A DNA stretch of 62,307 nucleotides, filler included, from 3 parts of 3 records of this genome joined end to end with filler, not necessarily neighbours in it, one strand, 5' to 3'; shown: positions 41,123 through 62,307, counted from the whole stretch's first letter. Made by a program: numbers and translations. Notes: generated from the sequence alone by a model not told the origin.

Positions 41123-44100
41123 TCACCGCCTCCGTTGGCCACGCGCTCTGCGCTCTGCTTGGCTACTCTGTGACGAATGAGTGGAACTGGAGTTATCTGA
41201 GCCACTTGACGTGGCCCAGTCATCTCTGCTGTCAGAGCTTGTCTCATACGTAGCAACGCCTTTGTTGGAAACCCTCCTCTTGCCCCTAGAATAGAATCTA
41301 CCCTCCTTGGGGCCCGTCCCTTCATCAGTAGAGTACTCTGTTGTCGGTCGTTTCCCTCCTTTTTTGGATATGCGTGGAGGGTTATCAACTAGAGTCCGCT
41401 CCTCCCGCTCTGGTCTGCCCAACCCTCTCGAGGAACTTCTCTTTTCGGGGCTCGCTTTTCTGCTCACACCAGCCGTTCCACGCTGCTTAGGGCTCCCCTT
41501 CTCAGCTTCAGGCTCCACGGGCGAGGCATCTGACCTCTGGACAGAGCTATCCTCGCACATGTCATTGACGTCTTCCTCCTTCGGATCATTCGTGGTCCGG
41601 GCTGCAACCATGTTCGGCGGTAGGGCCGGCGGAGGATCAGCCTTACTGGCCTTGGCCTTGGACTTGTTTCCCTTCATCTCATTCTTATGGTGACCCTTGG
41701 CCTGCTTCTTATCGGAGGGCTTGCTGTTCGCATGTTGGGACTTGGAGGGACCTTTCTTTGAAGCCTCAGCCAGCGTCTTTGTGATTGCATCGTCAACGAT
41801 GTTCCCCGATAACTTAGAAAACATGCCATTCGCACTCTCATCCAAAGCCATTCCCAGCACCTAAACCAGAATCAGCTACACCGCCGATATGACTTTCACA
41901 TCAATCCTACCTTCGCGGCCTTCTTGTCACCAACAGAGAGAAGGGTGTTGTAATCCGACTCGGAGAACCACTCCCATCTGTGAATTGTTGAAGGGCCCTT
42001 GTCCTTGGACTCTTCTGTGAAGAAAGATTTCTTTGGTAGTGTAGGAATCTTGATGCCAAAGAAGTAGAGATTATACTGAGACATCAGGCCTGGGTATGAC
42101 GGCGACAGGTTGGACTCCACCTTGATCTCCTGTGAACCTGGCACAAAAAGGATTTCTGAACAGCACTCAGGGATAGTGCACAAATCAACCCAATGTGGAG
42201 TACTTACCATGGTCACTATCCACAAATCCGGGAAATTCCTCACGGCATCCCCTTTCGCAGCCCTCCCAAGGATCTTCGGTCCCGAGAATCTTCTCAGAAG
42301 GCGCCGTGTATCGGCGTATGTACCTTCCCGACGCTGTTCTATCCTGGTGGGTTTCGATAAGTAACATCTTGTTTCCCATTTCCTGTATCATTTGATTTCA
42401 GCCCGGACGTCCAGCAATACCTCCTCAGCATACTCACATCGTGCATCTGGACCATCATCTTCGCTACTTGAGTGACCCTGACAATGTCGTGCTTGCACTG
42501 ATGATTCTCATGTTCCTTCTTGCCGCATATGCGTATAATGGTCTCGCCATTCTCAATCTCACTATAGAGCTTCTCCACAGTCTTGCTTTTCGGACCATCC
42601 CCCCATATCGATTCCTCCTTGCCATTATCGTATGCAAGCGTTAAAGGCATCACCGTATGTTCTTTACCATTGAACACCTGTTGATTCACACGCTTCGAGA
42701 ACCCTTGGCAACTGCTAATCAGGTTGAATAGATGTTCCATATTTTCTACCTGGACCTCCAGATAGTGGCACGACTCCGAATCTTTCAGTTCGTTGTGCTC
42801 GGCCTTGGAAGCCGCTTCGTGCGTCTTCTCAAGGCGATTCAGCACATCTCGGAACCACGCAGAATCCGAGTCAAGATCCACGCGATTGACAGTGCGACTA
42901 TTGTCTTCCCCACCGGCACCGCCTGATTTGGAGTCTGCTTGCAGTGCAGGAATTATGTCATCCTTTAGCATCTTCAGGACAGCATCAGGATTGTGTGGCG
43001 ACAAGCATCGCAGGAGGCTAGTCAATATGGGTCCGGCAACACTCAAGTCAGCTGCTTGCATTACCTCCTCCATCAGCAACCCAGGAGTCTTGGATACACC
43101 CTTATGTCCACCATCGCCCAACGCATTATTGGCTCTTGCCAATTCTTTCTTATTATTAGCCAAGTCAAGTGGCTTTTCTCTTGACAAAATTGTCATTTTT
43201 TCACCGAGCACGTTGCTCTCGCCCTTTCCATCGTCCATCCCAACATTCTCCATCCATTCCTCAAGGGTTTTCTTCGCTGCATCTGCATCCTCTTTCATGG
43301 CGAACAACATTTCGTAACGAGCTCGGGCATAGAGGGCACCATCCCAAGTGTCGACTGTGCCGGCTTCAAGATGAGAGGGTGGATTCTTAAAGTGGCGAAC
43401 CTCTTGAACACATCTCAGAAGCGTCGACGAATAGCGCTCTTTCATCCGCTTCATCATGCTTGGAGTTTCTTTTTGGGCGCCAACACCATTTCTGGACCCG
43501 TTGGACTCATCTTCGAATTTCCCATTGTGTTTCTCCTGCGACTTCGCTTTCGCATCTGGCATGGGCGGAGTGGGATTTGAGGACGATAGTCTCCTCATGA
43601 GAGGAATCGGGGCATCGAATATGGATCTTGAGGAATCCTTAGAAACAAGCATGCGGTGTTTTGAATCCTTGAAACTTTGAATTCGTGTAGTATCGCTTGA
43701 TGAAGTTGTGCCCCCGGCTGAAACAGTGCCTTTGTCATGGACCTTGGACGACGACCTGCCATTTTTACAGCACAAAGCTGCCTTAATTCTGGACCAAAAA
43801 TCTTCGGACAGCTTGGTCAAGCGCGAATCCATCATGTCGTAAAGCATCATAGTGTTGATAGTGGTTTCCCATTTAGCATCAATGGATTCCCAACTAGCCA
43901 CATACACTTCTGAGAGGACACCAATCAACAAGTTCAACAAAAGCAGATTACCAAACATGGTCACCGATACCCTGGAAAAGGTTTTAGAAGCAAGAAGCAC
44001 ACGATGTGAGCCACACTCACCATAGCAACGTGCCAAATACGGGAGCTGCGCCCTCTACCTCATCAGCATCAAAATCTCCAATCAGCATGCGAAGTATCGA

Positions 44101-47100
44101 GAGCATGGTTTGTGGATAGTTTCTGTAGCCCGATAGGTCAGGGGCCAGCCCAAAATGGGCTCCCATGGCGAAACAGAACCAGCACAAGCACAAGAGCGCC
44201 AAGAAAACAAGTGTCTTGGAATCAGTAACGGTCGCGCGAACAGCTTCGATGACAGGGCCAATGCGCGGGACCGTCACAAGGTACTTGACCAAGCGAAGCC
44301 AGCAGAGGATAAGAACAGTGGCACTAATCGTGCGAGACCAAAAGTGAAGGTAAGACAAAGTCCTCAAATCGTAGTATGTGCTTTGGGATCTGCTGATATC
44401 CACTGGAGCCATCCCGCGTCAGGCAACAATTATGCATTCACCGTATTATAACACGTACCGTCCAACTCAAACCATTCAATCATGAGAGTGAACTGGAAGA
44501 TCCACTTTGCAATCATCAACAAGAATACCTGCAAAAAAATTAATATGGCGAAAATGACAAACTCTTTAGAAAGGCAGAAGTCTTACAAGCAAGTCCCAGT
44601 AATTCCACATTGAGCGGAAATATGATGTTACATCCTGGATGAGCTCGATGACTTCGAAAATGAAATAAGAAACGACGCAGAAGAAGACGAGTATCTCGAC
44701 ACAAACAGTCAATATAGTTTCCAACGATCTTGACAAGATAGGCCGAAAAGACACCACTTGATAGGACGGAATTACTCCTCCCGTCGCAGGCATTTCCATT
44801 CTAAGTTCAATGGCTTGGATGAAGTCAGTCGCTTCATTGTAATACGCCATTTCGATAAACAAGGCGCGTGTTGCCGTGGCACTAATCCACTTTTCATTGA
44901 TAAGGGTGGTAATCACGGCCCGCGCAGCGGTAGAATCACCCGGGGTTATATCAATAACGTATCCATTATCTGGATATGATGTCCATTTCACTCCTGTGGA
45001 CGACCATCCGGAATTCTCGCTCCACGTGTATTTACCATCCGTTCCAAAGCTGCTCTTATCCTCTGTATTAAGGTAGAACTCGGGATAGCACGTGTAGTCT
45101 GAAGGTTCTAACTCTGGGGATTGACCCCAGCAAGTATCGCCCTTAACACGAACCTGTCGTAAACGGACAACACCTAATATTCTGTTCTTACTGTAAGCGT
45201 ACAGTTGCTCTGTTCCTGCAGTAGTTGCATCCCCATAGGCATCTTCAGTAGGAAAGGCGAATTCTGCCAGTGGACTCGATAACCACTTATGTACATCATC
45301 CAAGTTATTCAGATCCTGCACACTAATAAGACCGCGGGCTCTACGCGAAGGCAGATCTCTTACCATGAAAGTGGTTGGCCACTCGTCGCCTGTCGCATAC
45401 GCAATCTCTTCTTCAATGAGGCCGGCTACTGTTTTTTGGTTCAGATAGTACGTGTTCTCCGGGACCCAACCAACTCCAACAGATGTCGGGACGCTGATGG
45501 TAAGAAGAAAGAGAAACAGAATGTATGGCAAGAAAGACTTTGCGAATCTCTCCAGCAAAAATCTATCCCGCTTAGATTTCACTCGGCCTGATAAAGAGTC
45601 AGGCATATATGGAATAACAAGCGATGCGTACCAACCTATCTTGTTCAATATACTCAGCTGTTCACACGATTTCTCTACAGTATCTTTCACCCAAAGGGGC
45701 TGATCATCGTCTCCACCTTCCCTCTGCAATATCTTCTCGAGGCGAATGAATGTGCTTGACATTACCACCGCGGTATTGTACGCAGTATCTTCCGAACCCA
45801 CAGGGTCCAATGGACTAGTACTGGTGGATTCGCACAAGACTTTCACAATCTCAGGGCAAACATTCAATACGGCATAATGCATTGCGGTTTTTTCATATAT
45901 GTCGAAGAGGCCTACATCGGAAGCATCTTCATAAGATTTAAGCTTCTTTGCCTCCGATTTCGATAATCTTGAATTCAGCCATTTGTCAACGAAGGATTCA
46001 CCGCCACGGACCTCACTTGTGAGCCCAGCAAGTATATTGGATTGTGAGACGCTCGTCTCGGGGACACTAGAAACAAAACCTTTCTTCATGTCTCTCAGCC
46101 CCTTCCATTGGTTTGTGGGCATATTCGCTTTCGCTTTGCTAGATTTTTGGATTTGCAATTCGTCTCGGAGTTGAATATTCTTCGATTTTTCAAGAAGAAA
46201 TTCCACCTAAAACACGTCAGTCATTTGCGAAAATATAGTGTTCACACTCACAACTTCTCCATGTCCGCCTATCGCGGCGAAATGAAAAGGTGTTCTCCAC
46301 TCCCTTCTATCCTGTAGAAACAAGTGATTCTCCAAAGTGTTGGGATCTACCATCGCCTTGGTTTGCTCCAACGACCCCTTCATCGTAGCGTAATGGAGAT
46401 ACATCCACTTTTCTGCGAGCACATGAATCTCAGATGAACTCGATTGAGTTGGTTCCGTTCTCAATGACATCCTTTCTAGAAGCACAGTCCAGGCATCCCA
46501 GCGGTACTCCCCCTCGTTGTACTGTTCGTCCTCTTCCGTATCGAGAACTTGCTGCTCCAGAGAAACATTGTTCGGGTCATGGAATAAGGCATGGGACTGC
46601 GACTCTTGCAAAAAGGCATTCAGCATATTCCAGACATCCGGCCCGGTGACCATTCCTAACGAGTGCCTGCCTGCGGGAGTCTGGTAATAAAGGTAAGCAC
46701 TAGTAGTATGCGGCGGCTATATGTCACCTACGTTCAGCTTAGCAAGAAGTGAATATTCCTCGGCGCACGTTTTACAATCCCGAAAGAGCTTCTGGGGATC
46801 AGGCCCGAACTCCTCTCTCCATTGAACGCTTGAATTCATCAAATCCGAACCCTGCAGCAAGAGGTTAGAATTGTGATAATGCGCACTCTTGTTCACATTT
46901 ACATGGTGACGCAGATATCTCCAACGGTACATTTCGCAGGGCAGATATCCATGTTTGTCCATCACATCGATGTTGGCGCCCTTTCGGCACTTGATCAGCT
47001 TACGGATGACCCTAGATCGACCATACATGCAGGCAATGTGAAGTGGTGTGCGCATATCAATGTCAAGAGCATTCACGAGAGCATCCATCTTCAGAAGCTG

Positions 47101-49322
47101 TTCAAAGAGAAGGTCTTCAATATCGACAGGATCTCCGAGACCCAGGGCTTCACGCTTTTCCCTCTGGATCTCGCTCAGCATATGAGTAATTTCGTAATCA
47201 TGGAACAACCGGACTGCAAGATACGTCAATACGAAATCACTACAACTGCATCGCCATTACATACTTGCTACGTGAAGAATTTGACTGCCCATGTTCAATG
47301 CTTCAACCCGCTGCTCATCTGGAAGGCCAACAATAGTGGTATTTAAAGCGAATAAAACGCTAAAGAGATCCGTCGCATCAATGAACCCTCCATTGCGGTT
47401 CTATAGATGGAAACTCAATTTGTGATATGCCGCCAATCAAACGACTGTCATACCTCATTGTTACTCAACTTGAGGACGAAGGCATTGGAGGTTTGCTCAG
47501 ATGCTTCGTTGGTAGCAGTGCGGCACGTAAGCGCTACCAACTCACGAGGGAGTGTCGTGAACTTGTTGTGCGAGATATCAAGCTCAGAAAGAGACGGCAT
47601 GTGTGCATGCATAGCCTCCACCCAATGTGGGTCCAGGTCCTCAAAATTTTGCTTATATAGAATCAACCTTCTAATGTTAGATATCTCTTTGTAGAGATCG
47701 TACTTTCGACCAAAGTAAACCTCCGGCCCAGCAGCCAAGGTGATCAGATGCCTGCCTAGTTTCTCTACAGCATCCCCTTCACTACTGCTTATCATGCTAA
47801 AGTGCGGGTCCGACTCCTTGAACTTGGCCCATCCTGATTTGGCTACGGTGGTGATCCTAAAGAGATCGTAACAGTGCTGTGGCTGCGATATGAACCCCAG
47901 TCTATATGCCTTCTCATTCCCTCGCAAATCCAACGCCAACTTCGGGCATAAACCATAACCGCCGTCATTCTAGGTATTGTTGTTAATCGACGTAAGCTGC
48001 ATCATCAGCACAAAATTGAATAAAGCATCATACCTTTCCTTCCTCATCCATCTTCTTCTCGATCAATGCCTTGCGCTTGCGGAGGAATGGGATGATGAAA
48101 TTCTCTACCGCAGACACGGTGATGTTATTATTTCTAAGATCAAGTGAGAGCAGAGTCGTGTTGTCCACCAATGCCTCGAATAGCTTAATTATTCCCAACT
48201 TTCCGATCCCATTATCTCCGAGACACAGCTCCTTGAGAGTCCGAATATTCAAAAGCTTGCAAGCCACCTTCATGCCTGATGAGAGAACGTCAGAACATGA
48301 ATGAATACCAGAATGCTTATAGGAACTTACCGCTGCCATCAGCTCTTCCAAGCTTGCATGATGTTAGATTCAGGTTCTGGATAGCGCACTTTTCTTGGAG
48401 ACTGTCGGACAAATCTCCCAGCTCATCGAGTGACATTTGAACACCTCGCAGATCCAAAACAGTAAGATTACGCTGGTGTGTGATCCCGGCGATGGACCCG
48501 GCAAACTTGGCTGCGGAGAAAAGGCATTCAACGGAGATGCTTACGTTTGAACATGCGGAAATCTCACCAATGCTAAAGGTCGAGGCAAACGACGTGTTCA
48601 GCACTTGCAGTGCCTCACTCTGCTCTATGAAGTTATTCATAGAGAAATACCCAATCTCATTGTTCCCAACTTTCAACTCCCGGAGTGTCTCCTTCTGCTT
48701 CATCAATGCCGGAAACACCTTTGCAAAGTCCTCCTTGCGAAGGCCATTGCCCTGCAGCTGCAGGGATCGGAGAGCTATCTGCAACCTTGGGTCAAATCAT
48801 AACACATCGACTAAATGATCAAACCATTCATACGTGTTTGCATTGAAGGAGAGCCGCAAGAGCATCTACCTTAACAATAGTTTCGGCACGGCTATTCTGG
48901 GCATACCGTGCCATGTCTAGAGAAAAATTATCAAAATGCGAAGGCGAGAAGGTGGCTAGACTCCTTATGATTTCTAACAGAACCGAACCGTAAGTGAAAG
49001 ACAGCAAGATATAGCGGGAATGCGCCTACGTTCAAATAAACGTGCTGACAACAGTGAAGATCTAAAGGATAGACGGTGAAGCCGAGCCCCGCCGGTAGTA
49101 ACCATATCCTTGACCAGCTGAATCAGTCGGTTAACGTCCTCCATGTCTATAAACTTTGCATTCTTAGCGAGCAAGTCTTCGAACACTCGAATCTGACCAA
49201 CAGGCCCATTTAGAATATGTACAAGGTGATAATACCCATTCAATCACCTTGAGGTCAATGCAGCCATCTTCTGGGCGAGTGTGAGCCACGAGAGTCTCAT
49301 AGAACTCGTGGGTTGGTTCCAT
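41123..49322 (-). CDS. LRR + ankyrin + polycystin-2 (TRPP)-type cation channel + Nudix-like domain, ~17 introns, ~2,400 aa
   Basis: Exons from ATG 49322 splice in frame through GT-AG introns; LRRs (LKELCLGDNGIG, LLSLDLRNNNIT, LSELDISHNKFTTLP); ankyrins (RTPLHIACMYG, RTPFHFAAIGGH, KTAMHYAV); polycystin motifs LGVVRLRQVRV, TRALFIEMAYYN, SMWNYWD, LRMLIGDFD, LLNLLIGVL. Confidence 0.85.
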
Positions 49323-49355: not shown

Positions 49356-49455
49356 NNNNNNNNNNNNNNNNNNNNNNNNNNNNNNNNNNNNNNNNNNNNT
49401 TAATTAATTAANNNNNNNNNNNNNNNNNNNNNNNNNNNNNNNNNNNNNNNNNNNN
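49356..49455. other. Artificial contig spacer
   Basis: 100-nt N run with TTAATTAATTAA at 49400-49411. Confidence 0.98.
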
Positions 49456-49670
49456 TGCTCTACAAATGCAATAATTTACACTTTTTTCTCTTTGCCACAT
49501 GTTTCCAACTTAAGATGTGCTTTTTTTGAAGCCTAATCTGCTTCTCTTATCCTTAACTATTGTAAACCTACATTGCATGTACATTTCTGCTTATCTTTCT
49601 GTTTAGTTATGTTGATATCTTACCTTCACTATGAATACCTTTATTATTTATCTAGAACAATCAATCGTCG

Positions 49671-51242
49671 ATGCCCAAACCGCTCAGCCGCCTATTCGGG
49701 CCCAAGTTGCTCAACCAGTCCAAGGAACTCGTAGACACGGATACCACTCTACCTGTCGGGAAGCCGGCAGATGGGGCCAAACAGCCCAAGTATGTTCTAG
49801 TGTTGTTCAGTGCCGAGTGGTGCCCAGCATGCCGTACATTCCTCAATCCTCTTAAGGAGTTCTATAAGAATCACAAGGAGGCCAAAGGCTTCGAGGTGGT
49901 ATTCGTTTCCCGAGACAACACCCGTGAGGAGTTCCGTGATTACTTCCACAACCATCATGGAGGCTGGCTATCCGTCCCCTATGAGAACACTGCCCGCCTT
50001 CGTGCCAAGCTGGCCAAGAGGTACAAGATCCAGGGCATACCCTCCCTCATCGTACTAAACGCCGAGGATGGAGGGGGCCTCATTACCAGGATGGGCCGTC
50101 AGCAGGTGCTAAGGGACCTTAACGAAGCCGCCTATTTCCCCTGGAAGCCTCGTGATGTGGGAGATATCCTGAGGGACGTGCCCATTATGAACAAGGCCGA
50201 TAAGCGCATAGATATAGCCGGTGGGGAGAAGGCCGACGGTACCGTCAATAAGAGCGGTCTGCGCTATGTGGCTCTCTTCTTCGGCTCCCGTGGATCGAGT
50301 GCCTCTCGAGTATTCACTCCCCTGCTGAAACAGCTCTACCCTCTTGTCAAGGCTGCCCATGGAGATGCCGCTGAGTTTGTGTATGTCGGTGCTGATGCCA
50401 CTGAGGCCGAGTACAAGACCAACACCGACAGCATGCCATGGGCACGTGTCCCATTCCAACACGATGGGGTATCCACCCTCATGGAGCTGTTCGGTGGGGG
50501 TGTTCCCAGCCTTGCTACTGCCGACTTGCTAACTGGCGAGATCCTCAATATGAACGCCAGTGATCTCGCTGCTGCCGAGACGGATGTTGACCCAGCCAAC
50601 CCTGACGCCCCCCTTACGAAGACGGCCTTCCCCTGGATGCGTGAGACGTTGCCTGCTGTCGCCTCCCTGGTGATGTCCCCCGCTGTGTTGGAGTCGATTC
50701 AGACCAACCACTGTATCATGCTGGCAACTAACAACGCCCCTAATATCGACGTGTTGGTTGCCGAGGTGGAGTCTGCTGCTAAGATGATTGCCGATGCCAC
50801 TGCCGATATCAAGAAATCACTTGCCGAGGTACGCGCAAGCCAAGATGCTAAGCTCACTGGGGCGAAGGTGGAGGAGGACGCCCCCAAGGAGGACTCTGAC
50901 TCTGACATTGTGGACGAAGATGAGGATGACGACGACAGTGATAGCGATATGGTTGAGGAGGGAAACTCCCAAGCCCAATCCGCCGAGCCACAGATCGTCC
51001 GCACCCTCAAGAAGTCCAAGTGTCTTGTCCAATTTTTCATCTCCGACCATCGCGACCCCAACAGTTTGGACCTTCAAAAGCGTATCACCTCCGTGCTGAA
51101 GGAGGAGCTGCCCGTCTCGGGGGCTATCATCTTCGGTTTTGATCTCAAACACAACAAGAAGTATGGTATTCTCCAAAAGATCACAGCCGGTGATATCGTG
51201 GCCTACACCAAGCAATTCCTTCTTAGTCTTCACGACAAGTAA
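49671..51242 (+). CDS. Nucleoredoxin/tryparedoxin-like multi-thioredoxin-domain protein
   Basis: FSAEWCPACRTF active site; FEVVFVSRD; GIPSL cis-Pro; second domain YVALFFGSRGSSASRVFTP with cysteines replaced. Confidence 0.85.
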   Translation: MPKPLSRLFGPKLLNQSKELVDTDTTLPVGKPADGAKQPKYVLVLFSAEWCPACRTFLNPLKEFYKNHKEAKGFEVVFVSRDNTREEFRDYFHNHHGGWLSVPYENTARLRAKLAKRYKIQGIPSLIVLNAEDGGGLITRMGRQQVLRDLNEAAYFPWKPRDVGDILRDVPIMNKADKRIDIAGGEKADGTVNKSGLRYVALFFGSRGSSASRVFTPLLKQLYPLVKAAHGDAAEFVYVGADATEAEYKTNTDSMPWARVPFQHDGVSTLMELFGGGVPSLATADLLTGEILNMNASDLAAAETDVDPANPDAPLTKTAFPWMRETLPAVASLVMSPAVLESIQTNHCIMLATNNAPNIDVLVAEVESAAKMIADATADIKKSLAEVRASQDAKLTGAKVEEDAPKEDSDSDIVDEDEDDDDSDSDMVEEGNSQAQSAEPQIVRTLKKSKCLVQFFISDHRDPNSLDLQKRITSVLKEELPVSGAIIFGFDLKHNKKYGILQKITAGDIVAYTKQFLLSLHDK

Positions 51243-51354
51243 CAATGAACTATACCTATCTACCGATATCATATTCCCACCTATTATTACTATTGATTTG
51301 TGTATGTTTTGGTCTTTATGCTTTTTCCCCACCATTTTATATTTACAGCGCATT

Positions 51355-53001
51355 ATGGACCTATCAACCAGCTCTATCTACCCCCCAACAGTATGCCCCA
51401 TCGGGGTTGATCATATAACCCGTCCTGGGTGGGTACGGCTATGGCCCTTCCCTACCTTTGAGGAGGGGCCTGCATTGGAGCCTCGATCCCGCGTTGACTC
51501 CTCCCACAGCAATGCCCCCACAGGTATTCTACCCCACGGCGTGAAGGCCCGCAAGGAGGATATGAGCTCCAGCGATGACGACGATGAGAACGCCCTTGCC
51601 AACGGTGTCCTCGAACAGAAGATGAAGCTAAACAACAGGACATCCCTCCCATGCTCAAAGACCACCGCCCATCCCCTAACGTCCGACTGGAACAAGGCCG
51701 AGTCTATTACCCCCGACTTTAAGAAACATCTACGGGGGATCAAGAGCCCCATCGACACCCGTTTTGTGCCCAAGCGGGCTAAAGTCGAATTTACGTCGTT
51801 CCTTGAAATTCTGCTACCACAAATCGAACTGAACGAGAGTCGATCTACCATTACCTCCTCGAGACCTTCCCATTCACGCCCACAGTCTGCCTTCTCCACC
51901 ACGGGCGGTAGAAGTACTGTTAGAAGTACCACTGTGCCTAGCGTGACAATCGACGAGATATCTACCCTTATCACAGTGGGGGCAGGTAGACAAGGGCCCT
52001 CTACCCCAGGCACATCAGGAGTGCTCACTGGGTCGTCGACACTTGCGGACGTACCCACCAAACACATGCATATATCGTGGCTGGGTAAGAGGGAGGGGCT
52101 CAGTAGACGTGTCCACCCCCCTGCTGTACTACTTACCCTAAATAATCTGAGCACCAAGTTACTTACACACGGCCCAAAGGACTGCCTCATCAACAGTCCC
52201 CGATCCGCTGTAGTGCTCTTTAGGAATGGGGTGGCCATCAACGAGCTGCTCCCCTCCCCTGCCATAGTGAGGGCTGTGGAGGCTCATACCGCCGAGCAGG
52301 AGGCCATAGCCAAGAACCTTCGCAGCAGTTCCCGTAAGTCGATAGCAGAACAGGCCTTGCACAGGGACACCGTCAGGGCAGTGGGTGCTCTCGACCCCCT
52401 CGAGTGCAAGCGGGAGTTGAAGAGGGCCCGCCTATTCGGTAAGATGCTCCTTGAGTACCACCAGGTGTGTGACGATGTTCCTTTTGAGGACATACTATCC
52501 TTTGCAAATGACTACGATGCATCCCGCCCCAGCTCGGCCCTTCGAATTGAGCTCCCGCCGAGTCTAGCTCCACCTCACCTTCAGGGGTCCAAAAGCAGGT
52601 TGCTGCCTGAGGATGTACTGGCATCTCGATTTGGAGAACAGTTCACAAAACATACTGAGTTCCAATCACGGGTAGTTAACATCCGCAAGATGCAACGAGA
52701 GGATAAAGAGCAGTTGCAGAGGCACACATTACATAGGATGCAGTCCAAGCAGCATCGTGTGGATGAGGCATGCCGGGCTAGACGGGCCCTACTCGATTCA
52801 AAGAGGGAGGCATCGCGTATCAACGACTCCCTCAGGGCAGACGAGCTACACCATGTACGATCGAAGAGTGCATTTCATACGTTGGTTAAACTTGAAGCCA
52901 CAGTGCGGAGGACGGACGAGGCAGGAAGTTTAGGGCGGGCACGAAGTGCAATGCGAAAACGTTACAACGACGAGTTGGTGCGTTCTGTACAACCCATGTA
53001 A
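51355..53001 (+). CDS. Hypothetical protein with C-terminal coiled coil
   Basis: Intronless ORF; ATG 51355 follows a pyrimidine tract and AG (51347-51348), as expected for a trans-splice acceptor. Confidence 0.7.
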   Translation: MDLSTSSIYPPTVCPIGVDHITRPGWVRLWPFPTFEEGPALEPRSRVDSSHSNAPTGILPHGVKARKEDMSSSDDDDENALANGVLEQKMKLNNRTSLPCSKTTAHPLTSDWNKAESITPDFKKHLRGIKSPIDTRFVPKRAKVEFTSFLEILLPQIELNESRSTITSSRPSHSRPQSAFSTTGGRSTVRSTTVPSVTIDEISTLITVGAGRQGPSTPGTSGVLTGSSTLADVPTKHMHISWLGKREGLSRRVHPPAVLLTLNNLSTKLLTHGPKDCLINSPRSAVVLFRNGVAINELLPSPAIVRAVEAHTAEQEAIAKNLRSSSRKSIAEQALHRDTVRAVGALDPLECKRELKRARLFGKMLLEYHQVCDDVPFEDILSFANDYDASRPSSALRIELPPSLAPPHLQGSKSRLLPEDVLASRFGEQFTKHTEFQSRVVNIRKMQREDKEQLQRHTLHRMQSKQHRVDEACRARRALLDSKREASRINDSLRADELHHVRSKSAFHTLVKLEATVRRTDEAGSLGRARSAMRKRYNDELVRSVQPM

Positions 53002-53083
53002 ATTAACATTTATGTAACTGGATTGCCTGTTGCGATGTGTGGGAATAATGTGGTGACCTATTTGTTGTCCCCCTAAGTTAGCC

Positions 53084-56000
53084 ATGCTCTGCGAGACCAA
53101 ACCATCTGCCAAGTTAGTTTTCAAAGACGGTACGTGCTACGAAGGTCTATCCTTCGGCGCACCTACCAGTGTTGCGGGAGAAGTAGTCTTCTCCACCGGT
53201 ATGGTGGGCTACCCCGAAGCCCTCACCGACCCCTCCTTCTCTGGCCAAATGCTAGTTCTTACCTACCCTATGATAGGTAACTACGGTATTCCCAGCCTGG
53301 AGAAGGACGCCTTCGGTGTCACCAAGCACTTCGAGTCTGACGGAGGTCAGATCCACGCCTCTGCGGTTATCGTCTCCGAGTGTTGCTTCGAGTCGGACCA
53401 CTGGCAGCAAGTGCAGACCCTTGACAGCTGGCTCAAGGCCCAAGGCATTCCCGGTATTATGATGGTGGACACCCGTGCCATCGTCCTCAAGCTACGCGAG
53501 ATGGGAACTGCCCTCGGCAAGATCATTGTTGGCGATAACGAGGTTCCCTTCGTGGACCCTAACACCAAGCTCCTAACTGAAGTCGTCAGCACCAAGACCA
53601 AGAAGACGTACGGTCACGGTAACATAACTATTCTTTGCCTCGACATGGGGATTAAACTTAACATCATTCGCTGCTTCCTCCGCAACGATGTCACCTTCGT
53701 GGTTGTCCCTCATGACTGGGACATCACTACCGAACACTACGACGGCCTCTTCATCTCCAACGGCCCCGGTAACCCAGAGATGTGCCACGCCACCATCCGC
53801 AGCCTTCGTTGGGCCATTCAGCAGAACAAGCCTATATTCGGTGTGTGCATGGGTAACCAAGTACTTGCCCTTGCCGCTGGTGGATCTACCTACAAGATGA
53901 AGTATGGTCATCGTGGCCAGAACCAGCCCTGTCGTGCCCCCGATGGTCGCGTTGTCATCACCACCCAGAACCACGGATTCGCTGTTAACGCTGGTACCCT
54001 CCCTGCTGAGTGGGAAGAGTGCTATATCAACCCCAACGACAACACCAACGAGGGTATCCGTCATCGTACCAAGCCATTCTCCGCGGTGCAGTTCCACCCC
54101 GAAGGTCGCTGCGGTCCCCAGGATACCGAGTTCCTGATCCGTGACTTCGTTGATGAGGTGAAGAAGTCCAAGATCGAGGAGGTTGTCAACTGGAAGCCCA
54201 AGAAGGTTCTCGTGCTAGGTGCAGGTGGTATCACTATTGCCCAAGCCGGTGAGTTCGACTATAGCGGCTCCCAGTGTCTTAAGTCCCTCAAGGAGGAGGG
54301 CATCGAGACTATCCTTGTGAACCCTAACATCGCCACCGTCCAAACTGATGACGAGATGGCCGACAAGGTTTACTTTGTCCCAGTCACCCCCGAGAGCGTT
54401 GAGGCCGTTATCGAGAAGGAGCGTCCTGACGGTATCCTCCTCGGCTGGGGAGGTCAGACCGCCCTGAACTGTGGAGTGCAGCTGGAGGAGAGGGGTATCC
54501 TTAAGAAGTATAGCGTCCGTGTCCTCGGCACCCCCGTGTCCACCATCGCCGTTACCGAGGACCGTGAACTCTTCCGCGATGCCCTGAAGCAGATCAACGA
54601 GCACGTCGCCAGGTCCATGGCTGTCACATCTGTCGATGCCGCCGCTGTTGCCGCAGAGACCATTGGTTATCCCGTCATGGTCCGTGCTGCCTTCTGCCTT
54701 GGAGGCCAGGGAAGTGGTATCGTGGCCAACGAGGAGGAGCTTCGTGTTAAGGTAGCCACCGCCCTCTCCGCTTCCCCCCAGGTACTTGTGGAGGAGAGCG
54801 TCGCTGGATGGAAGGAAGTGGAGTACGAGGTTGTCCGTGATATCTACGACAACTGTATTACCGTCTGTAACATGGAGAACTTCGACCCCATGGGTATCCA
54901 TACTGGTGAGTCCATCGTCATCGCCCCCTCTCAGACACTTACCAACGACGAGTACCACATGCTCCGTACCGCCTCCATCAAGATCATCCGCCACCTGGGA
55001 GTTGTCGGCGAGTGCAACGTCCAGTACGGTCTGGACCCCTACTCTCACCGTTACGTAGTGATTGAGGTCAACGCCCGTCTATCCCGATCATCTGCCCTTG
55101 CGTCCAAGGCCACTGGATATCCCCTTGCCCATGTTGCCGCCAAGCTTGCTCTCGGAAAGGGACTCCCCGATATTGCCAACGGTGTCACCAAGACCACCAC
55201 TGCCTGCTTCGAGCCCTCATTGGATTACTGCGCCATCAAGATGCCCCGCTGGGACCTCAACAAGTTCAACAAGGTAAGCAACGAGATTGGGTCTATGATG
55301 AAGAGTGTTGGTGAGGTCATGGCCCTCGGTCGTACCTTTGAGGAGACTATCCAGAAGGCCCTCCGCATGGTCGACCCCTCCCACGTCGGATTCAGCTGCC
55401 CTACCTCATTCCCAGCGGACTGGGACTACAAGGCCATCATCGCCAAGCCCACCCCCGATCGTATCTGGGCCATCTGCCGCGCACTAAATGAGGGCGTCTC
55501 CATTGACGAGATCCACGACTTGTCTAAGATCAACAAGTTTTTCTTGGCCAAGCTTGACAGCATCGTCAAGACTGAGAAGCGTCTCAAGGCCCAGTATGCT
55601 AACGTTGAGGACATGCCCATCAAGATCCTGAGGGAGGCCAAGGCCAAGGGTTTCAGTGATCGCCATCTCGCCCTTACCCTCTCTACCACCGAGGAGGCTG
55701 TCCGTAAGTATCGCCATGACAACAACGTCCTTCCCGTTGTAAAGCAGATCGATACCGTTGCCGGAGAGACATCCGCCCAGACCAACTACCTCTACACCTC
55801 ATACAACGCCCAGATCGACGACGTCAGCTTCGGAGACCAGTTCTACGTTATTTTAGGTTGTGGAGTGTACCGCATTGGTAACAGTGTCGAGTTCGACTAT
55901 GGAGGAGTGCTTGTTGCCAGGGAGCTACGCCGTCTTGGCCACAAGGTCATCATGATTAACTACAACCCCGAGACCGTCTCCACCGATTACGATGAATGTG

Positions 56001-58558
56001 ATCGCTTGTACTTCGAGGAGATCTCTCTCGAGACTGTCAGCGACATCCTCGCCAAGGAGCGTCACCGTGGTGTCGTTATCAGTGTCGGAGGCCAGTTGGT
56101 GCAGAACATTGCCCTCAAGCTTAAGTCCTCAGGATTCAAGATTCTAGGTACCGACCCCAGTAACATCGATATGGCCGAGGACCGTAACAAGTTCAGCCAG
56201 ATGTGTGATGACATCGATGTTGCCCAGCCCGAGTGGATATCTGCTGTCTCCATCGATGAAGTCCATGCCTTCTGCAAGCGCGTCGGGTTCCCATGCCTTG
56301 TCCGCCCCAGCTATGTGCTGAGCGGATCCGCTATGTCTGTTATCGGAACTGCCGATGATGTGGACCAGTACCTCCGTACCGCCTCCCTTGTCTCCGGTGA
56401 CCACCCTGTCGTTGTCAGCAAGTACTACGAGAATGCCGTTGAGTACGACGTCGATGTGGTGGCTCACCACGGCACTCTTCTATGCTACTCTATTGCCGAG
56501 CATGTTGAGGCCGCCGGGTGCCACAGTGGTGATGCCACTATGTTCCTACCTCCCCAAAACGGTACTAAGGAACTGATGAAGTCCCTCTACGATGCCGCCC
56601 AAAAGGTGGCCGAGAAGCTTGACGTGGTTGGTCCTATGAACATCCAATTCCTGCACACTGCAACTGGTGAGCTAAAGGTGATCGAGGCCAATGTCCGCTG
56701 CTCCCGCTCTGTCCCCTTCGTTTCTAAGACTTTGGGTATCAGCTTCCCCGCCATGATGGTGTCCGCCTTCCTTGCCCGTCCCGAACAGACCCTCCTTCCT
56801 ATTAAGCGCGCTAAGATGTCCCACATTGGATGCAAGGCTGGTATGTTCTCCTTCAATCGACTCGCTGGGGCTGACCCTATTCTTGGAGTCGAGATGCGCT
56901 CCACTGGTGAGGTCGGAGTGTTCGGCCGCGACAAGCACGAGGTCTTGCTCAAGGCTATGCTTTGTCAAAACTTCAAGTACCCCACTAAGGCAGTCGTTGT
57001 TGACATTGAGAAGGCCGATGATGCCGCCTCATTCGCTCCATTTGCCAAGCTGCTCGCTACCAAGCTCAAGGTCTTTGCCACCGAGCGTACCGCCGCTGCA
57101 CTATCCGCAGTTGGTGTTGAGGTACACCTTGCCTATGGCCGGGACAAGCCCACACAGCTTCCCCAGCTGGATGCACTGTACGAGGCTAAGGACATCGACC
57201 TCGCCATCCAACTTCGCGATAAGACTAAGGATTTTATCGTCCGTCATTGCACCGCCGAGGAGTCCCCAGTAGACTACTGGATCCGTCGCCGTGCTGTTGA
57301 CTTCAGTGTATCCCTTATTACCGAGGTGGCAATTGCCAAGCTCTTCTCTGAGGCCTTCGTCAAGTTCACTCCTACCGACATCGAGATTGAGCCCTTCCGC
57401 ACCTACGTCCCAAAAATCTACCACAAGCTCAAGAATGCCAACTTCACTCTCCTTCGTCGCCAGAAGGTTGGTCTCTGCATCAACGACGATGTATCCAGTC
57501 GTGTCCTTGCACTCCGCCTGAAGGAGGACTGTCACAACCTCACTTGCTTCCATGCTGACGTTGGCCAATGCGGAAGTGGATCCACACTGCTCGAGGAACT
57601 TCTCAGCGCTGGTATCCCCACCGAAATCATTGACCTCCGCACCAAGATGGCGGAGTGCTGCACCGACCTTATCATGGCCAACGCCATGGCCGAAGCCGCC
57701 GATTTCTTCATCACTAACATCGGTCGCCACGTTATCAACGGAGGTTTACTGCCCGCCATGAAGGCTAGGAAGATCAAGGTTGCCGCGCAGGCATCCAGCC
57801 GTGCCAAGCGAGTCGTTCGCTTTGAGAAGTACGTCAAGGCCATCTCCCCCGAGATCAGCGTCTACCAGCCATGGCGTGATACCCGTATGCTCGAGGAGTT
57901 CCCTCTAGAGGCCGACCAGATCGCCTATATTGTCGAGAACGGTATGGCTGCCCCTAAGATCGCCAGCGGTGTTAAGATGACCGTGAACCTCGCCGGAGTT
58001 GCCCAGACTGCCCAGTCTCAATCTACTCTCAAGCTCCAGCTCGTCCGTCTCCCTCGCGACTGCCCCGAGGAGCCTGAGTTCGTCACAATTGCCTTCCAGA
58101 ATGGTGCATGCACTCGCATTAACGGTGTTGATGTAAAGGCATACCAGGCCGTTCAGCTAGCGAACGAGATTGGTGCCCGCAACGGTATTGGAATCCAGCG
58201 TACTGCCGACGGTAACCTGTTTGAGGTTCCCGGTATGACACTCCTTGCCCGTGCCCTCCGCTACCTCTACGAGGCTATCTTCGACCGCTCCAGTATGGAC
58301 ATGATCCGCTCCTACTCCGCACATGTCGCCAACCAAGTGGCACACGGTAAGATTGCCGACCCCAGCACACAATCTGCCTTTGCTGGTATCCGCTTCCTTG
58401 CCAACGATGCCACTGGTATTGTTGAGCTTGAGCTGCACCGTGGACACGCCATCTTCCTCAAGGTGGAGGGTGTTGTCAACGCCGACGCAGACCAGGACCT
58501 ACATGGCGATGAAGTCTTCACACAAGGAAACGGTGACTTCAGCGACATGGAGTGGTAG
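53084..58558 (+). CDS. pyr1: Glutamine-dependent carbamoyl-phosphate synthetase II (GAT + CPS + MGS) with C-terminal argininosuccinate-synthase-like domain
   Basis: [21 protein letters not shown], QFHPE (GAT); [48 protein letters not shown] (CPS); kinetoplastid-like N-terminus and short GAT-CPS linker. Confidence 0.96.
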   Translation: [1824 protein letters not shown]

Positions 58559-58803
58559 TCCACATATACCTAATACTTAACTAACACTCACAAAAACAAC
58601 CATATACTTTGAAGCATGAAAAAAAAAATCTACTCAGAAACAGGCCTTGAGCTTCGTAAGATAAAACAATCACAAAAGGGAACAACAATACTCACACACA
58701 TTCACGTAAAAACACACTCTTAACATTGCATTTTGGTAGGGCCTTTGTACGACTTTGTTGTTTTGAGTTGATGATGATACTGTGTTATTTCCATTAGTAA
58801 CAA

Positions 58804-59946
58804 ATGCAGCTGCCAGGTATTATTGATTGCCACGTTCATTTCCGTGAGCCAGGATTGGAGCACAAGGCCACCATCGCTACTGAGGCCACCGCTGCACGAT
58901 CAGGTGGTGTATTTACTGTGTGCGAGATGCCTAACACCAACCCCGGTACCAACACGGTCGATGCCCTCAAGTTCAAGGTGTCAAAGGCAGATGCCGTCCG
59001 CCATCTATGCGATGTCCGATTCTTCTTCGGGGCTACGGAGATGAGTCATCTCGATGAGCTTCGTAAAATATTCACTGCTGAGGAGCACTTCGATTTCAAG
59101 CGTAACTGCAGCGGTCTGAAGTTGTACTTAGACAACAGCACTGGTAACATGAAGGCATCGGAGGAGGTTACCCACAAAGCCTTTGCCCTTTGTGCTGAGC
59201 TCGGAATTGTACTTGTTGCACACTGCGAGCATGCACACACCAACGACACTGCTGCTGCATGCTGCCCATACTCTGATCCCAAGTCCCACTCAGAGCGCCG
59301 CCCTGTGAAGTCTGAGGTGGAGTCCATTAAGGAAGCTATTGCCATTGCAGCGAAACACAACACCCGCCTCCACATTGCCCATCTCTCGACGGCTGGCGGC
59401 CTTGCACTGGTTATTGAGGCCAAGGCAAAGGGACTCCCAATCACCTGCGAAGTAACCCCTCACCATCTGCTGCTTTCATGTGATGATTACGCCGTTTTAG
59501 GTGGCCGCGCGAAGGTCAACCCTCCTCTTCGCCCAATCGACAACCGTGGTGACTTGTGGGCGGGAGTTGTTTCAGGAGCCATTGATTGCATCTCTACTGA
59601 CCATGCACCCCATCTTCTGTCCGAGAAGGACGCCGATGGAGTTCCACCCTCAGGCCTCCCAGGTGTCGAAACCGTCCTCTCCCTCATGGTGTCTATCGCT
59701 CTTGGATGCTGGCCTCATCCTAGCGATCCTCAACCTCCCAGGAGTAAGGAGTTCTCGATGGAGCACATTCGAGCTCTGATGTTTGAGAACCCCAACAGAA
59801 TCTTCGGGCTCGGGGCTGATAGCACCCCCAAGCTAACAGTGTCCTCAGAGGGATTCAAGCACATCCGCGGTGTCGATCAGAAGACCAAGTGTGGATGGAC
59901 CCCTTACGAGAACTGGAAGGTCAAGGGCGCCATTAGTGAGATCTAA
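58804..59946 (+). CDS. pyr3: Dihydroorotase
   Basis: DCHVHFREPG, EMPNT, GLKLY, VAHCE, HIAHLS, EVTPHHL, KVNPPLR, STDHAPH, KCGWTPY. Confidence 0.95.
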   Translation: MQLPGIIDCHVHFREPGLEHKATIATEATAARSGGVFTVCEMPNTNPGTNTVDALKFKVSKADAVRHLCDVRFFFGATEMSHLDELRKIFTAEEHFDFKRNCSGLKLYLDNSTGNMKASEEVTHKAFALCAELGIVLVAHCEHAHTNDTAAACCPYSDPKSHSERRPVKSEVESIKEAIAIAAKHNTRLHIAHLSTAGGLALVIEAKAKGLPITCEVTPHHLLLSCDDYAVLGGRAKVNPPLRPIDNRGDLWAGVVSGAIDCISTDHAPHLLSEKDADGVPPSGLPGVETVLSLMVSIALGCWPHPSDPQPPRSKEFSMEHIRALMFENPNRIFGLGADSTPKLTVSSEGFKHIRGVDQKTKCGWTPYENWKVKGAISEI

Positions 59947-60070
59947 CTTACATTAATATTTTTTGACATGTTCCCATTTTATCAGTTTATAATGATGCCA
60001 TAGTGAAGCGGAGTGATTATCAATTTACATTTCCCCTTTTAAAAGTGAAAGCTATCAAACAATAACGACC

Positions 60071-61903
60071 ATGCACGGACGCGAGAAGAAGGGAGTTCCC
60101 AAGAAGGTTGCTTCAACTCAATCCGGTGTCTCATCCCCTACCGCACAGGGTGCATCTCCCTACCACTCCTACGGCCATGCTCTTGACGAGCTTGGCTACG
60201 ACAGCACGCAGTTCGATGCGATGTTGGACACTTTGCAGAGTGACAAGAAGGCAAAGAGTCTTGAGACCATCGGCACCATTCTAGGCCACCTCCGAGTCCT
60301 CGACAACAACACCTCCTCCCACTACATGGCTCATGGCGCTACCGTCATGTCCGCTATGGAGTCGGCCCTTGCAACCAACAAGAAGGCAACCCTCAAGGAC
60401 CGCGTCGCCATTATCCAGACTGGTACACTTCTTGCTAGTACCCACGGTGACGACATCCTAGAGCTTTATGACACTTGGGCCAACGTTTGCTTCCAATCGG
60501 TGGCTGGATCTGCAGCATCTAGCAACCTCAAAAGTGCACTAGGAGCCGCCTGTTTCGACGGCCTGGCAATCCTCAACGCTTGCAATCCCTCCGCCACTGT
60601 TCAGATTGGTGGAAGTGGTAACCAAGGCCGAGGTGGAAGCGTTGCCGAGGGACTGATGGACCTTGTTATGCGACGCGGTTACCAGTCGGCTTTGGCAAGT
60701 ACTGGTATCGCGGATGTCACTCCCCTGAATCATTCGACCATTCCCAGCTCCATCATTGCAGCCTCAGTTCCAACACTGTACACTGCATTCTTCGGAGGGT
60801 CGGCACTAGGGGGCGCCACTAAGGATGTTACAAACAACACCAACAACCCCGATGAGAATGATGATGGTTCTGCAACCAGCGGTGGGATCGCAACGGGAGC
60901 AGCTGCCTCTTCTGCCGCTGCTGCTGCAGCCGCCGCCCTGCTCCTTGAAGGCTCCCCTTCTGACTTATCCTTCGCAGCATTCCTCAAATGTCTTGCACTT
61001 TCTTGCGAGGCTTCTCAGTCCAGGAAGGTGCGTGGGGTCATTGAGGGTGCCATTGCGTACTTCATCGGACTCAACCCAGTACCATCTCCATCGGACCCTT
61101 CCACCGAGTTCCCAACCAATAGCACTCCTGAGTTGCTTTCAACCGTATCCCCCGCCACTACCGTGTTGATCGTTCGCGCACTTGAGGCTGCTACAGTGCT
61201 GAACAGCCGCTTTCCTCTTCTATTCGCTTCCCCTACCGAGACAAGCAATCCAACTTCAGGTAACAACTCTATTCCCCAGTCGCCGAACGGCTCTAATATA
61301 TCCTCGGTGTCTGGGCTTGCCCCGTTTACGAAGTTTTCCCTCAACGCTGAGGGCCTCAAGACCCTCCGGAAGCTTATTGCCACAAGTGGTGCCACGATGG
61401 GCAAAGCTGGCAAGCGACTACTGTCGAAGGCCATTCGCTCTCTTCAGGCATCCCTTCCAGACATGGAAGTGAACGACGACGATGTCGATTCTGACGACGA
61501 TGCCCCCCAGGCTGATGCTTGGGGAGAAGAAGGTATTGGAAGCGACGACGAGGAGTCTGACGATGACGACGATAACAATGCAGCAGACGACGGTTTCGTC
61601 ATCAAGATTCGCTTCCGTAAGTCCAAGGCTGTCGTTATTGTCGGATACCACCGTTGCGTGCTGACGCAACTGTTCAGGGGTCTCATGGAGGGGGGATTCC
61701 ACAGGCACGTAGTTCACAACTCGGCTCTTCAGCGTGTCCTTCGCCCCACTCAAGCCGGAATGGTCGACGACGATGACACAGTTATATCTTCGTACAAGGA
61801 GCGTAAGAGCCGCATGATTCAGCAGCAGGTTGCAAACAAGCGCGCCAACGACAAGGAGAGGTCCAAACATCGCGACCAGAAGGACAGTCATGCAGACGAG
61901 TAA
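60071..61903 (+). CDS. IFRD (interferon-related developmental regulator)-like protein
   Basis: C-terminal FRGLMEGGFHRHVVHNSALQRV...KERSKHRDQK resembles the IFRD C-domain; helical N-terminal region (LDTLQSDKKAK). Confidence 0.65.
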   Translation: MHGREKKGVPKKVASTQSGVSSPTAQGASPYHSYGHALDELGYDSTQFDAMLDTLQSDKKAKSLETIGTILGHLRVLDNNTSSHYMAHGATVMSAMESALATNKKATLKDRVAIIQTGTLLASTHGDDILELYDTWANVCFQSVAGSAASSNLKSALGAACFDGLAILNACNPSATVQIGGSGNQGRGGSVAEGLMDLVMRRGYQSALASTGIADVTPLNHSTIPSSIIAASVPTLYTAFFGGSALGGATKDVTNNTNNPDENDDGSATSGGIATGAAASSAAAAAAAALLLEGSPSDLSFAAFLKCLALSCEASQSRKVRGVIEGAIAYFIGLNPVPSPSDPSTEFPTNSTPELLSTVSPATTVLIVRALEAATVLNSRFPLLFASPTETSNPTSGNNSIPQSPNGSNISSVSGLAPFTKFSLNAEGLKTLRKLIATSGATMGKAGKRLLSKAIRSLQASLPDMEVNDDDVDSDDDAPQADAWGEEGIGSDDEESDDDDDNNAADDGFVIKIRFRKSKAVVIVGYHRCVLTQLFRGLMEGGFHRHVVHNSALQRVLRPTQAGMVDDDDTVISSYKERKSRMIQQQVANKRANDKERSKHRDQKDSHADE

Positions 61904-62214
61904 CAAATTCAACAACACCAATCACTAATCAACCATCATCTTGCGGATTGGAAATTGATTACCAGTAACACTCTATTGCCATTTGATTTTGTTCAGGCTG
62001 TGATTTATTATGCTTTGTTCCATAAATTTTTTAAGGTGTTGAAGTAAACTTGTTTGGGTTGGTTGGGGTTGTTGCATGGCCTGGGCTTCCCCCACGCAGT
62101 GTATGATTGTCGTCCATCGCATCGGTGTTTCCATCAATGCTAACTTGTTAATTGTCTTTTCATTCAACCCTTCCAGTGCCCTTCGCAATGTCATATTTAA
62201 CACCCAAAAACTCC

Positions 62215-62307
62215 TTAGGGTTGGGGTTGTTGCATAAAAATAAAAGGTTAGGGTTGTTGCTTAAACTTGTTTAGCTTAGGTTTAGGGTTAGGGTTAGGGT
62301 TGGGGTT
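62215..62307 (+). repeat. Degenerate telomeric TTAGGG repeats
   Basis: TTAGGG at 62215 and 62248, three tandem copies at 62282-62299, TTGGGG variants; G-rich strand points toward the contig end. Confidence 0.7.

Follow-up and report, generated by a model that had tools for sequence, protein, structure and literature searches.

A candidate PKD2/TRPP-type channel gene with a leucine-rich repeat and ankyrin arm and a possible Nudix-like module in a microbial-eukaryote contig

The DNA stretch analyzed here (62,307 nucleotides (nt); hereafter the window) carries a predicted channel gene, all of whose coding fragments lie on the minus strand at 49322..41123. We consider it fairly probable, on the evidence of the sequence, that this is an intron-rich microbial-eukaryote gene for a channel subunit of ~2,460 amino acids (aa) of the PKD2/TRPP type, that is, of group 2 of the transient receptor potential (TRP) channels, with an arm of leucine-rich repeats (LRRs) and ankyrin repeats, a C-terminus of ~870 aa and a possible Nudix-like module within it. 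In the predicted protein, the first transmembrane segment (S1) is preceded by ~1,100 residues that contain LRRs, of the RNI type and typical ones, and dispersed ankyrin repeats; ~870 residues follow the sixth segment (S6). The window contains two identical artificial spacers (N44-TTAATTAATTAA-N44, at 22778-22877 and 49356-49455). It is a concatenation of at least three contigs (A to C), and genes on the two sides of a spacer are therefore not necessarily neighbors in the genome. The channel gene is carried by contig B, and a scan for runs of N found none inside 41123-49322.

The splice structure was searched for as the shortest path that starts at the ATG (49322), ends at the TGA (41125-41123), uses only GT-AG introns and meets no in-frame stop. 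The path with the fewest introns (14 exons, 13 introns, 2,421 aa) required two long introns of 222 and 104 nt, the 222-nt intron skipping exon 2 of the model given in Table 1. This solution was dropped: its other 11 of 13 introns were 45-76 nt long, exons 2 and 14 score best in the modeled frame, and the exon 14 translation is recognized in a language-model search (Atlas). The model that was adopted has short introns throughout, with 16 exons, 15 GT-AG introns of 45-64 nt (mean 54), the donor consensus GT[A/G][A/T/G]G[T/A/C] and a product of 2,464 aa. We preferred it because its introns form a single narrow size class, because all its exons pass the codon-usage test described next and because of the recognition of exon 14 by Atlas. 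The first-pass annotation of this locus had proposed ~17 introns, most of ~45-65 nt, and a protein of ~2,400 aa; the in-frame joining through GT-AG introns stands, and the count is revised to the figures above.

In a leave-one-out codon-usage test, the modeled frame scored best in 16/16 exons, and all introns scored near or below zero. The margin for exon 14 was small (0.081 vs -0.044 in the +1 frame), which counts against the model at this exon. When introns were restricted to 40-70 nt, the real strand could be traversed with 14 introns, whereas the opposite strand offered no path; among 10 mononucleotide shuffles, five had no path under the same restriction and the other five needed 56-69 introns. 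The open path through short introns is far beyond chance.

Between the end of the contig and the putative start codon (49322-49320) there are 33 nt, a (TG)n run among them, and no upstream stop interrupts the reading frame. Because of this position and the missing upstream stop, the 5' end of the gene may be incomplete, and further upstream exons are possible. The (TG)n microsatellite occupies the extreme end of contig B (49331-49355) and probably explains why the assembly breaks 33 nt upstream of the ATG. The closeness of the gene to the contig end, in a draft assembly whose concatenated contigs include a bacterial one, could also be taken to indicate a pseudogene or an assembly artifact such as a chimeric contig. 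We regard this as extremely unlikely, given a 7.4-kb frame that stays open through uniform introns, coherent codon usage in 16/16 exons, intact pore motifs and the absence of any N run within the gene.

Table 1. Exons of the channel gene as modeled, and the contigs and closing spacer of the window
Feature	Coordinates	Strand	Description
Exon 1	49248..49322	-	Putative start codon; best codon-usage frame
Exons 2-3	49192-49030, 48973-48834	-	N-terminal region, no family match; introns 1-3 of 55, 56 and 55 nt
Exons 4-6	48778-48331, 48275-48034, 47969-47454	-	RNI-type LRRs, then typical LRRs, ~aa 127-530
Exon 7	47265..47400	-	136-nt connector between LRRs and ankyrin repeats; flanking GT-AG introns of 53 and 51 nt; best codon-usage frame
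Exons 8-9	47213-46732, 46680-46252	-	Ankyrin repeats, ~aa 600-680 and 820-877
Exon 10	44587..46206	-	1,620 nt uninterrupted; half ankyrin repeat continued from exon 9, further ankyrin repeat, pre-S1, S1, polycystin/TOP domain, S2
Exon 11	44459..44528	-	70 nt; S3; hydropathy peak at aa 1416-1434; alignment to P0020 crosses both junctions
Exon 12	44021..44402	-	S4, S5, pore helix, selectivity filter LIGDFD
Exon 13	42438..43971	-	1,534 nt uninterrupted; S6, ~430-aa cytosolic linker (part S/K-rich, part helical), first strands of the putative Nudix-like module
Exon 14	42208..42382	-	175 nt; putative degenerate Nudix-box segment EKILGTEDPWEGCERGCREEFPG
Exon 15	41911..42155	-	245 nt; putative C-terminal half of the Nudix-like module
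Exon 16	41123..41860	-	245-aa tail rich in S/K/R/A/G/E/P; stop TGA 41125-41123
Contig A	1-22777		30-37% G+C; dense intron-free bacterial genes
Contig B	22878-49355		~46-56% G+C; carries the LRR-ankyrin-polycystin channel gene
Contig C	49456-62307		Other eukaryotic genes
Artificial contig spacer	49356-49455	.	Closes contig B

The domain content was established by Pfam scans made on the single open reading frame fragments. The N-terminal arm opens with RNI-type LRRs (LRR_6 in exons 4-5, 25.2 and 28.6 bits for a cut-off of 23.4), followed in exon 6 by typical LRRs that stay below threshold (LRR_8 at 24.1 bits, under the 27-bit cut-off, and LRR_1 likewise). Ankyrin repeats were recognized in exon 8 (Ank, 31.4 bits, E 2e-07) and exon 9 (Ank_4, E 2.7e-05). 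Exon 10 holds a nearly complete Polycystin_dom (PF20519, E 1.3e-30, profile positions 3-197 of 199), and exon 12 taken alone matches PKD_channel (PF08016, E 6e-10). The best matches in the PDB were PKD2L1 and PKD2, with PKD2L1 (5z1w) reaching E 4.8e-25 with exon 10 over aligned residues 83-328. The stretch LGVVRLRQVRV, singled out in the first-pass annotation as a mark of the TOP domain, is present and aligns to the corresponding stretch of PKD2L1. In exon 12, the pore filter LIGDFD aligns to LGDFD of PKD2L1, and its I-G-D filter fits PKD2/PKD2L1. Hydropathy analysis gave exactly six hydrophobic segments, all between aa 1102 and 1587; the 1,100 residues at the N-terminus and the 870 at the C-terminus contain none. 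The protein thus has a TOP domain in the S1-S2 loop, a six-transmembrane core, an (L/I)-G-D filter and, as described below, a place among PKD2-like proteins in the tree. The order proposed in the first-pass annotation (RNI-like LRRs, typical LRRs, ankyrin repeats, TOP domain and six-transmembrane channel) is borne out by the fragment scans and by hydropathy, with LRR_8 below its cut-off; its long C-terminal extension and disordered tail are likewise found, as ~870 aa after S6 that end in an S/K/R-rich stretch. This tail, encoded by exon 16, matched no Pfam family and is probably disordered.

By analogy with PKD2, the TOP domain would be extracellular or luminal and both long arms cytosolic. 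The LRR/ankyrin arm is placed in the cytosol because no hydrophobic segment precedes S1 and because of the PKD2 topology. In that position it would not sense extracellular pathogen molecules directly. An extracellular LRR receptor was considered and rejected on this topology, and the pathogen-sensing role that had been proposed for the LRRs falls with it. Pfam matches in the N-terminal fragments were to LRR and Ank families only; neither a NACHT nor an NB-ARC domain, which would have pointed to an NLR/STAND protein, was found there.

Whether these domains belong to one gene can be decided in large part without reference to the introns. Exon 10 by itself links an ankyrin repeat to S1, to the TOP domain in full and to S2, and exon 13 by itself links S6 to the entire linker and the first part of the C-terminal module; both fusions are independent of splicing. 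Since each of these two exons holds several domains, most of the single-gene question is settled without splicing. The predicted junctions are crossed by homology as well. Intron 9 (45 nt) interrupts an ankyrin repeat, and the alignment of this repeat with one in P0009, a relative described below, continues across the exon 9/10 junction (aa 862-894). Junctions 10/11, 11/12 and 12/13 are all spanned, with one gap of 2 residues, when the spliced core is aligned to another relative, P0020 (domain E 7.2e-55). These observations make it likely that a single gene at 49322..41123 encodes the whole predicted protein.

Several points weigh against this conclusion. The splice structure was predicted from sequence alone, and the least supported link of the fusion is that from LRRs to ankyrin repeats, which runs through exon 7 and its two predicted flanking introns. 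No homologous sequence supports this exon, and exon 6 read unspliced ends at an in-frame TGA within its own GTATGA donor. The model could thus have merged two or more genes, for example an LRR protein ending in the exon 6 donor and a downstream ankyrin-channel gene. We judge this very unlikely: the mere ~240 nt between exons 6 and 8 would hardly accommodate a terminator and a promoter, the modeled frame of exon 7 has the best codon-usage score, the introns that flank this exon match the other 13, and the two nearest relatives (P0020 and P0030) carry LRRs, ankyrin repeats and channel in one predicted protein.

These relatives were obtained by an exhaustive HMMER search with exon 10 against 1.84 billion protein representatives. 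It returned 1,262 matches at E<=1e-3 and none at E<=1e-30, with a best identity of ~30% and no match of the protein to itself; the proteome of the source organism is therefore absent from this library. In word-index protein searches, exon 10 matched only distant animal sequences, PKD1L2 and PKD2-like (2 and 3 matches), and a scan of metagenome contigs with the same exon gave a single 17-residue match (L016), which helped neither with comparative splicing nor with the 5' end. Among the 150 listed HMMER matches, 26 were picked for their long N- or C-terminal extensions and scanned with Pfam. Two of them, P0020 (1,373 aa) and P0030 (1,356 aa), carry LRR, ANK, Polycystin_dom and PKD_channel, and the truncated P0120 carries LRR_6 with Polycystin_dom. 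Ankyrin repeats stand with PKD in P0009, P0098, P0100 and P0111, a kinase and ankyrin repeats with PKD in P0086, and WD40 propellers with PKD in P0047; the remaining scanned relatives are plain PKD2-like or PKD1-like proteins. A screen of 155 fetched proteins with repeat queries, cruder than Pfam, recovered the same nine repeat-bearing proteins and no others. In this set, the best match of the spliced protein was P0020 (E 2.6e-59), which is encoded on a 6,745-nt ENA contig. The RNI-type LRRs of P0120 match aa 274-335 of the model (3.2e-05), and the ankyrin block aligns to the ankyrin repeats of P0009.

A maximum-likelihood tree was built from 48 channel cores out of 83, including all repeat-bearing rows that were usable, with the other groups represented. 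The gene, all eight other rows bearing ankyrin repeats, LRRs or WD40 propellers and the N-truncated P0126 form one group (ultrafast bootstrap (UFBoot) 96 / SH-aLRT 93), in which the gene adjoins P0030 (92/84) and P0020. The PKD1-like rows P0001, P0071, P0080 and P0127 group apart (100/99), and a quick tree of 83 rows agrees. The phylogeny of the channel core called for in the first-pass annotation thus places the gene among PKD2-like rows and apart from PKD1-like ones. It is likely, judging from these cores, that the repeat-bearing PKD2-like proteins and the gene form one group. Against this, the group has short branches and several long rows, and its bootstrap is not fully settled. In addition, the N-terminal repeats of P0020 and P0030 resemble those of the gene weakly and at the repeat level only, so that orthology of the arms is not established. 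Because P0020, P0030 and the ankyrin-PKD proteins exist and group with the gene, the LRR/ankyrin fusion appears to be a trait of an uncharacterized clade and not a one-off. The variety of N-terminal modules, such as the WD40 propellers of P0047 and the kinase with ankyrin repeats of P0086, suggests repeated domain shuffling on the channel core.

The architecture had been described as unrecognized and independently evolved. This does not survive the comparison: P0020 and P0030 have the same layout, ankyrin repeats are joined to PKD in P0009, P0086, P0098, P0100 and P0111, and all fall into one tree group. The layout of LRR, ANK, polycystin domain and PKD_channel is therefore already present in sequence databases, among environmental proteins in sets derived from public metagenomes and genomes, and only the C-terminal addition looks new. 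Uncharacterized proteins combining LRRs, ankyrin repeats and channel do exist, and a full-text search of the literature, covering running text (figures and supplements may hold such a case), found no description of an LRR- or ankyrin-bearing polycystin clade. P0020 and P0030 share with the gene the order LRR, ANK, Polycystin_dom, PKD_channel and are its nearest rows in the tree. They differ in that their cores are at most ~25% identical to that of the gene over the tree columns (P0020: 25% over 459 columns) and in that they end ~110-150 aa after S6, without the long linker, the Nudix-like module or the tail.

Animal PKD2 and PKD2L1 have short N-termini without LRRs or ankyrin repeats and a C-terminal EF-hand and coiled coil. 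Polycystin-2 and PKD2L1 (PDB 5t4d, 5z1w) share with the gene product the six-transmembrane core, the TOP domain between S1 and S2, the x-G-D-F-D filter and a similar S6. They differ from it in sequence (identity ~25-30%), and the gene product has ~1,100 aa of LRRs and ankyrin repeats, a C-terminus of ~870 aa and no EF-hand match in Pfam. TRPA1, TRPN/NOMPC, TRPV and TRPC also place cytosolic ankyrin repeats before a six-transmembrane TRP core; they belong to group 1, whereas the core of the gene is of group 2 (TOP domain, PKD_channel), and Pfam detected no group 1 family in it. LRRs are not known to be a feature of the TRPA1, TRPN, TRPV and TRPC families. The only PDB matches outside the polycystins were weak ones to the TRPM2 chanzyme (E 0.0017-0.0031), confined to S4-S5 of exon 12.

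Fusions of other kinds have been described in protists. Oomycete PKDRR combines PKD2 with RyR domains (PMC7399828), and choanoflagellate TRPW combines WD40 with TRP (10.64898/2026.06.15.732245); the texts of these two sources show that protist TRP/PKD2 channels often acquire extra cytosolic modules. The domains added in PKDRR and TRPW are neither LRRs nor ankyrin repeats. A WD40-PKD protein, P0047, shares the tree group of the gene. Within the text passages considered from PMC7399828 and from 10.64898/2026.06.15.732245, neither LRRs nor ankyrin repeats are mentioned for any PKD protein. In the text of a survey of diatom Ca2+ channels (PMC11085791), the terms PKD, polycystin, TRPP, ankyrin and leucine-rich are all unmentioned.

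The C-terminal module was proposed to be Nudix-like and to make the protein a channel-enzyme gated by nucleotides. The candidate module consists of the end of exon 13 with exons 14 and 15 (model aa ~2030-2220, ~190 aa). Two leads come from Atlas. With exon 14 alone, a NUDIX cluster ranked first (0.85), followed by NUDT9-like, NUDIX_2, MRP-L46 and DUF4916 sets, the NUDT9-like clusters standing low in the list (0.80 and 0.76). With exon 15 alone, which does not overlap exon 14, 16/30 matches fell in the PF00293 NUDIX set (0.92), and DUF4916 and NUDIX_4 also appeared. A home-made profile was made from 14 Escherichia coli K-12 Nudix domains. An hhalign comparison with these domains gave an alignment colinear over 80 columns, and both profile alignments place the Nudix-box helix on EKILGTEDPWEGCERGCREEFPG. 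Each of these results is weak when taken singly; the agreement of two separate exons carries weight, and we treat the Nudix likeness as a lead. On balance we lean, to a modest degree, toward a Nudix-type fold for this module.

A number of results speak against it. Pfam at E<=10 on exon 14, exon 15 and the exon 13 tail found no family, PF00293 and NUDT9_N included. Searching the PDB with phmmer, using pieces of the module, returned nothing relevant, the sole match of exon 15 being an irrelevant one at E 1.7. The E. coli Nudix hidden Markov model (HMM) scored -0.3 bits against the spliced C-terminus, and the hhalign comparison itself had P 0.048 and a probability of 1.1%. The Atlas matches share 92-139 of 256 features, as is typical of chance or of distant relatives. 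The Nudix box has the consensus GX5EX7REUXEEXGU, of which EKILGTEDPWEGCERGCREEFPG keeps only E7, R15 and E19-E20; in it, E replaces G1, G replaces E16, and P-G stands, shifted, for the G-U end. Among the 155 fetched PKD relatives, the Nudix HMM found no match (best E 0.81), and their C-terminal extensions reach at most 549 aa, vs ~870 aa in the gene. An AlphaFold2 model of the last 320 aa of exon 13, made from the single sequence, was poor (mean pLDDT 39.6, pTM 0.29).

These results leave some room for a different reading of the same single-gene channel, in which the Nudix likeness arose by chance and the C-terminal module is a domain specific to this lineage or a region that is partly disordered. 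The lack of Pfam, PDB or profile support, Atlas scores below or barely above the threshold for a lead with low counts of shared features, the incomplete box and a Nudix domain in 0/155 relatives are all what such a region would give. It is less easily reconciled with two separate exons that independently return one clan out of thousands of families, or with a colinear hhalign alignment that has the box in register, and we consider it possible but unlikely. If a Nudix-type fold is present, it is probably degenerate and non-catalytic, with ligand or partner binding more likely than hydrolysis; catalysis is doubtful because two residues of the box, its first G and the E in the R-E pair, are not kept and because its G-U end is shifted.

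The Nudix box of vertebrate TRPM2 is degenerate too, and its NUDT9-homology module binds ADP-ribose without hydrolyzing it. TRPM2 and the gene product would share a C-terminal Nudix-type module, putative in the latter, on a TRP-superfamily channel; TRPM2 differs in belonging to another TRP group, with a TRPM core and a SLOG/MHR N-terminus. The Pfam matches on the gene fragments included neither a TRPM nor an LSDAT family, so that both the TRPM core and the detectable NUDIX of a TRPM2-type channel are lacking among them. According to the main text of 10.64898/2026.06.15.732245, the NUDT9-H domain of TRPM2 is picked up by Pfam NUDIX in published surveys.

The sensor-chanzyme of the first-pass annotation goes further than a Nudix-type fold: a nucleotide metabolite would, as in TRPM2, be the substrate or the gating ligand of a functional Nudix domain, and the LRR/ankyrin arm would sense a ligand or a pathogen. 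The Nudix-clan Atlas leads with their low-ranked NUDT9-like clusters, the conserved E-E pair and R of the box, and the TRPM2-like position of the module C-terminal to the channel are consistent with this. The loss of the first G and of the E of the R-E pair, the shifted G-U end, the lack of a Pfam Nudix match and a cytosolic LRR/ankyrin arm without NACHT or NB-ARC domain argue the other way, and we hold the sensor-chanzyme to be decidedly unlikely. As to the separate elements of the claim, profile evidence for a Nudix domain is lacking and two language-model leads are what is left of it, and real nucleotide gating seems improbable. Rather unlikely, in our estimation, is also the fuller scenario in which a PKD2/TRPP-type channel gained a C-terminal Nudix-fold ligand-binding module independently of TRPM2, on top of the cytosolic LRR-ankyrin arm of an undescribed protist clade.

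Returning to the PKD2/TRPP-type subunit that we favor, its working can be sketched by analogy. The subunit would tetramerize like PKD2 and would pass cations non-selectively, possibly including Ca2+. The LRR/ankyrin arm could act as a cytosolic scaffold that binds partners or the cytoskeleton and tunes gating or localization, tethering or regulating the channel as the ankyrin arms do in TRPN, TRPA and TRPV; RNI-type LRR proteins are a further model for such binding. More speculatively, a partner or small ligand would bind to the C-terminal module, and the tail, rich in S/K/R, would be disordered and regulated by phosphorylation.

Characterized TRPP channels have simple cytosolic ends. The proteins grouped here suggest that the PKD2-like channels of microbial eukaryotes include a clade whose members carry large arms of LRRs, ankyrin repeats or WD40 propellers in the cytosol, which would widen the view of how TRP channels recruit protein-binding scaffolds and would offer a naturally occurring case in which to ask whether a group 2 TRP core can be regulated by repeat arms. 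A ligand-binding Nudix fold, if the module has one, would be the convergent equivalent of the TRPM2 NUDT9-H domain and a tractable model for the origin of channel-enzyme fusions; an independent Nudix acquisition, if true, would mean that gating by nucleotide metabolites arose twice in the TRP superfamily by convergence, the second time in a group 2 channel. If the module is not Nudix, the gene would be another large lineage-specific PKD2 paralogue.

Outside contig B, an Rfam scan of the whole window gave 0 matches, and the other two contigs have a gene content of their own. Contig A encodes two proteases that carry the Por_Secre_tail sorting domain of type IX secretion, a subtilase and an M36 fungalysin-type metalloprotease, together with UvrB, SucC (succinyl-CoA ligase beta chain), an ornithine/diaminopimelate decarboxylase, a GH3-family protein and an outer membrane protein (OMP) beta-barrel protein. 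The contig is bacterial and probably Bacteroidota-like, and it looks like a contaminant or an associate within a eukaryote assembly. On the plus strand of contig C, a stop-free frame of 1,833 aa (53057-58558) carries the small chain of carbamoyl-phosphate synthase (CPSase), GATase and the CPSase large chain, followed by the N- and C-domains of argininosuccinate synthase (Arginosuc_synth, E 3e-06; Arginosuc_syn_C, E 8.2e-13). It may be a carbamoyl-phosphate synthase/argininosuccinate synthase fusion or two adjacent genes read through. A 528-aa frame on the same strand (49656-51242) contains two Thioredoxin_8 stretches (E 4.7e-40) and is nucleoredoxin- or tryparedoxin-like.

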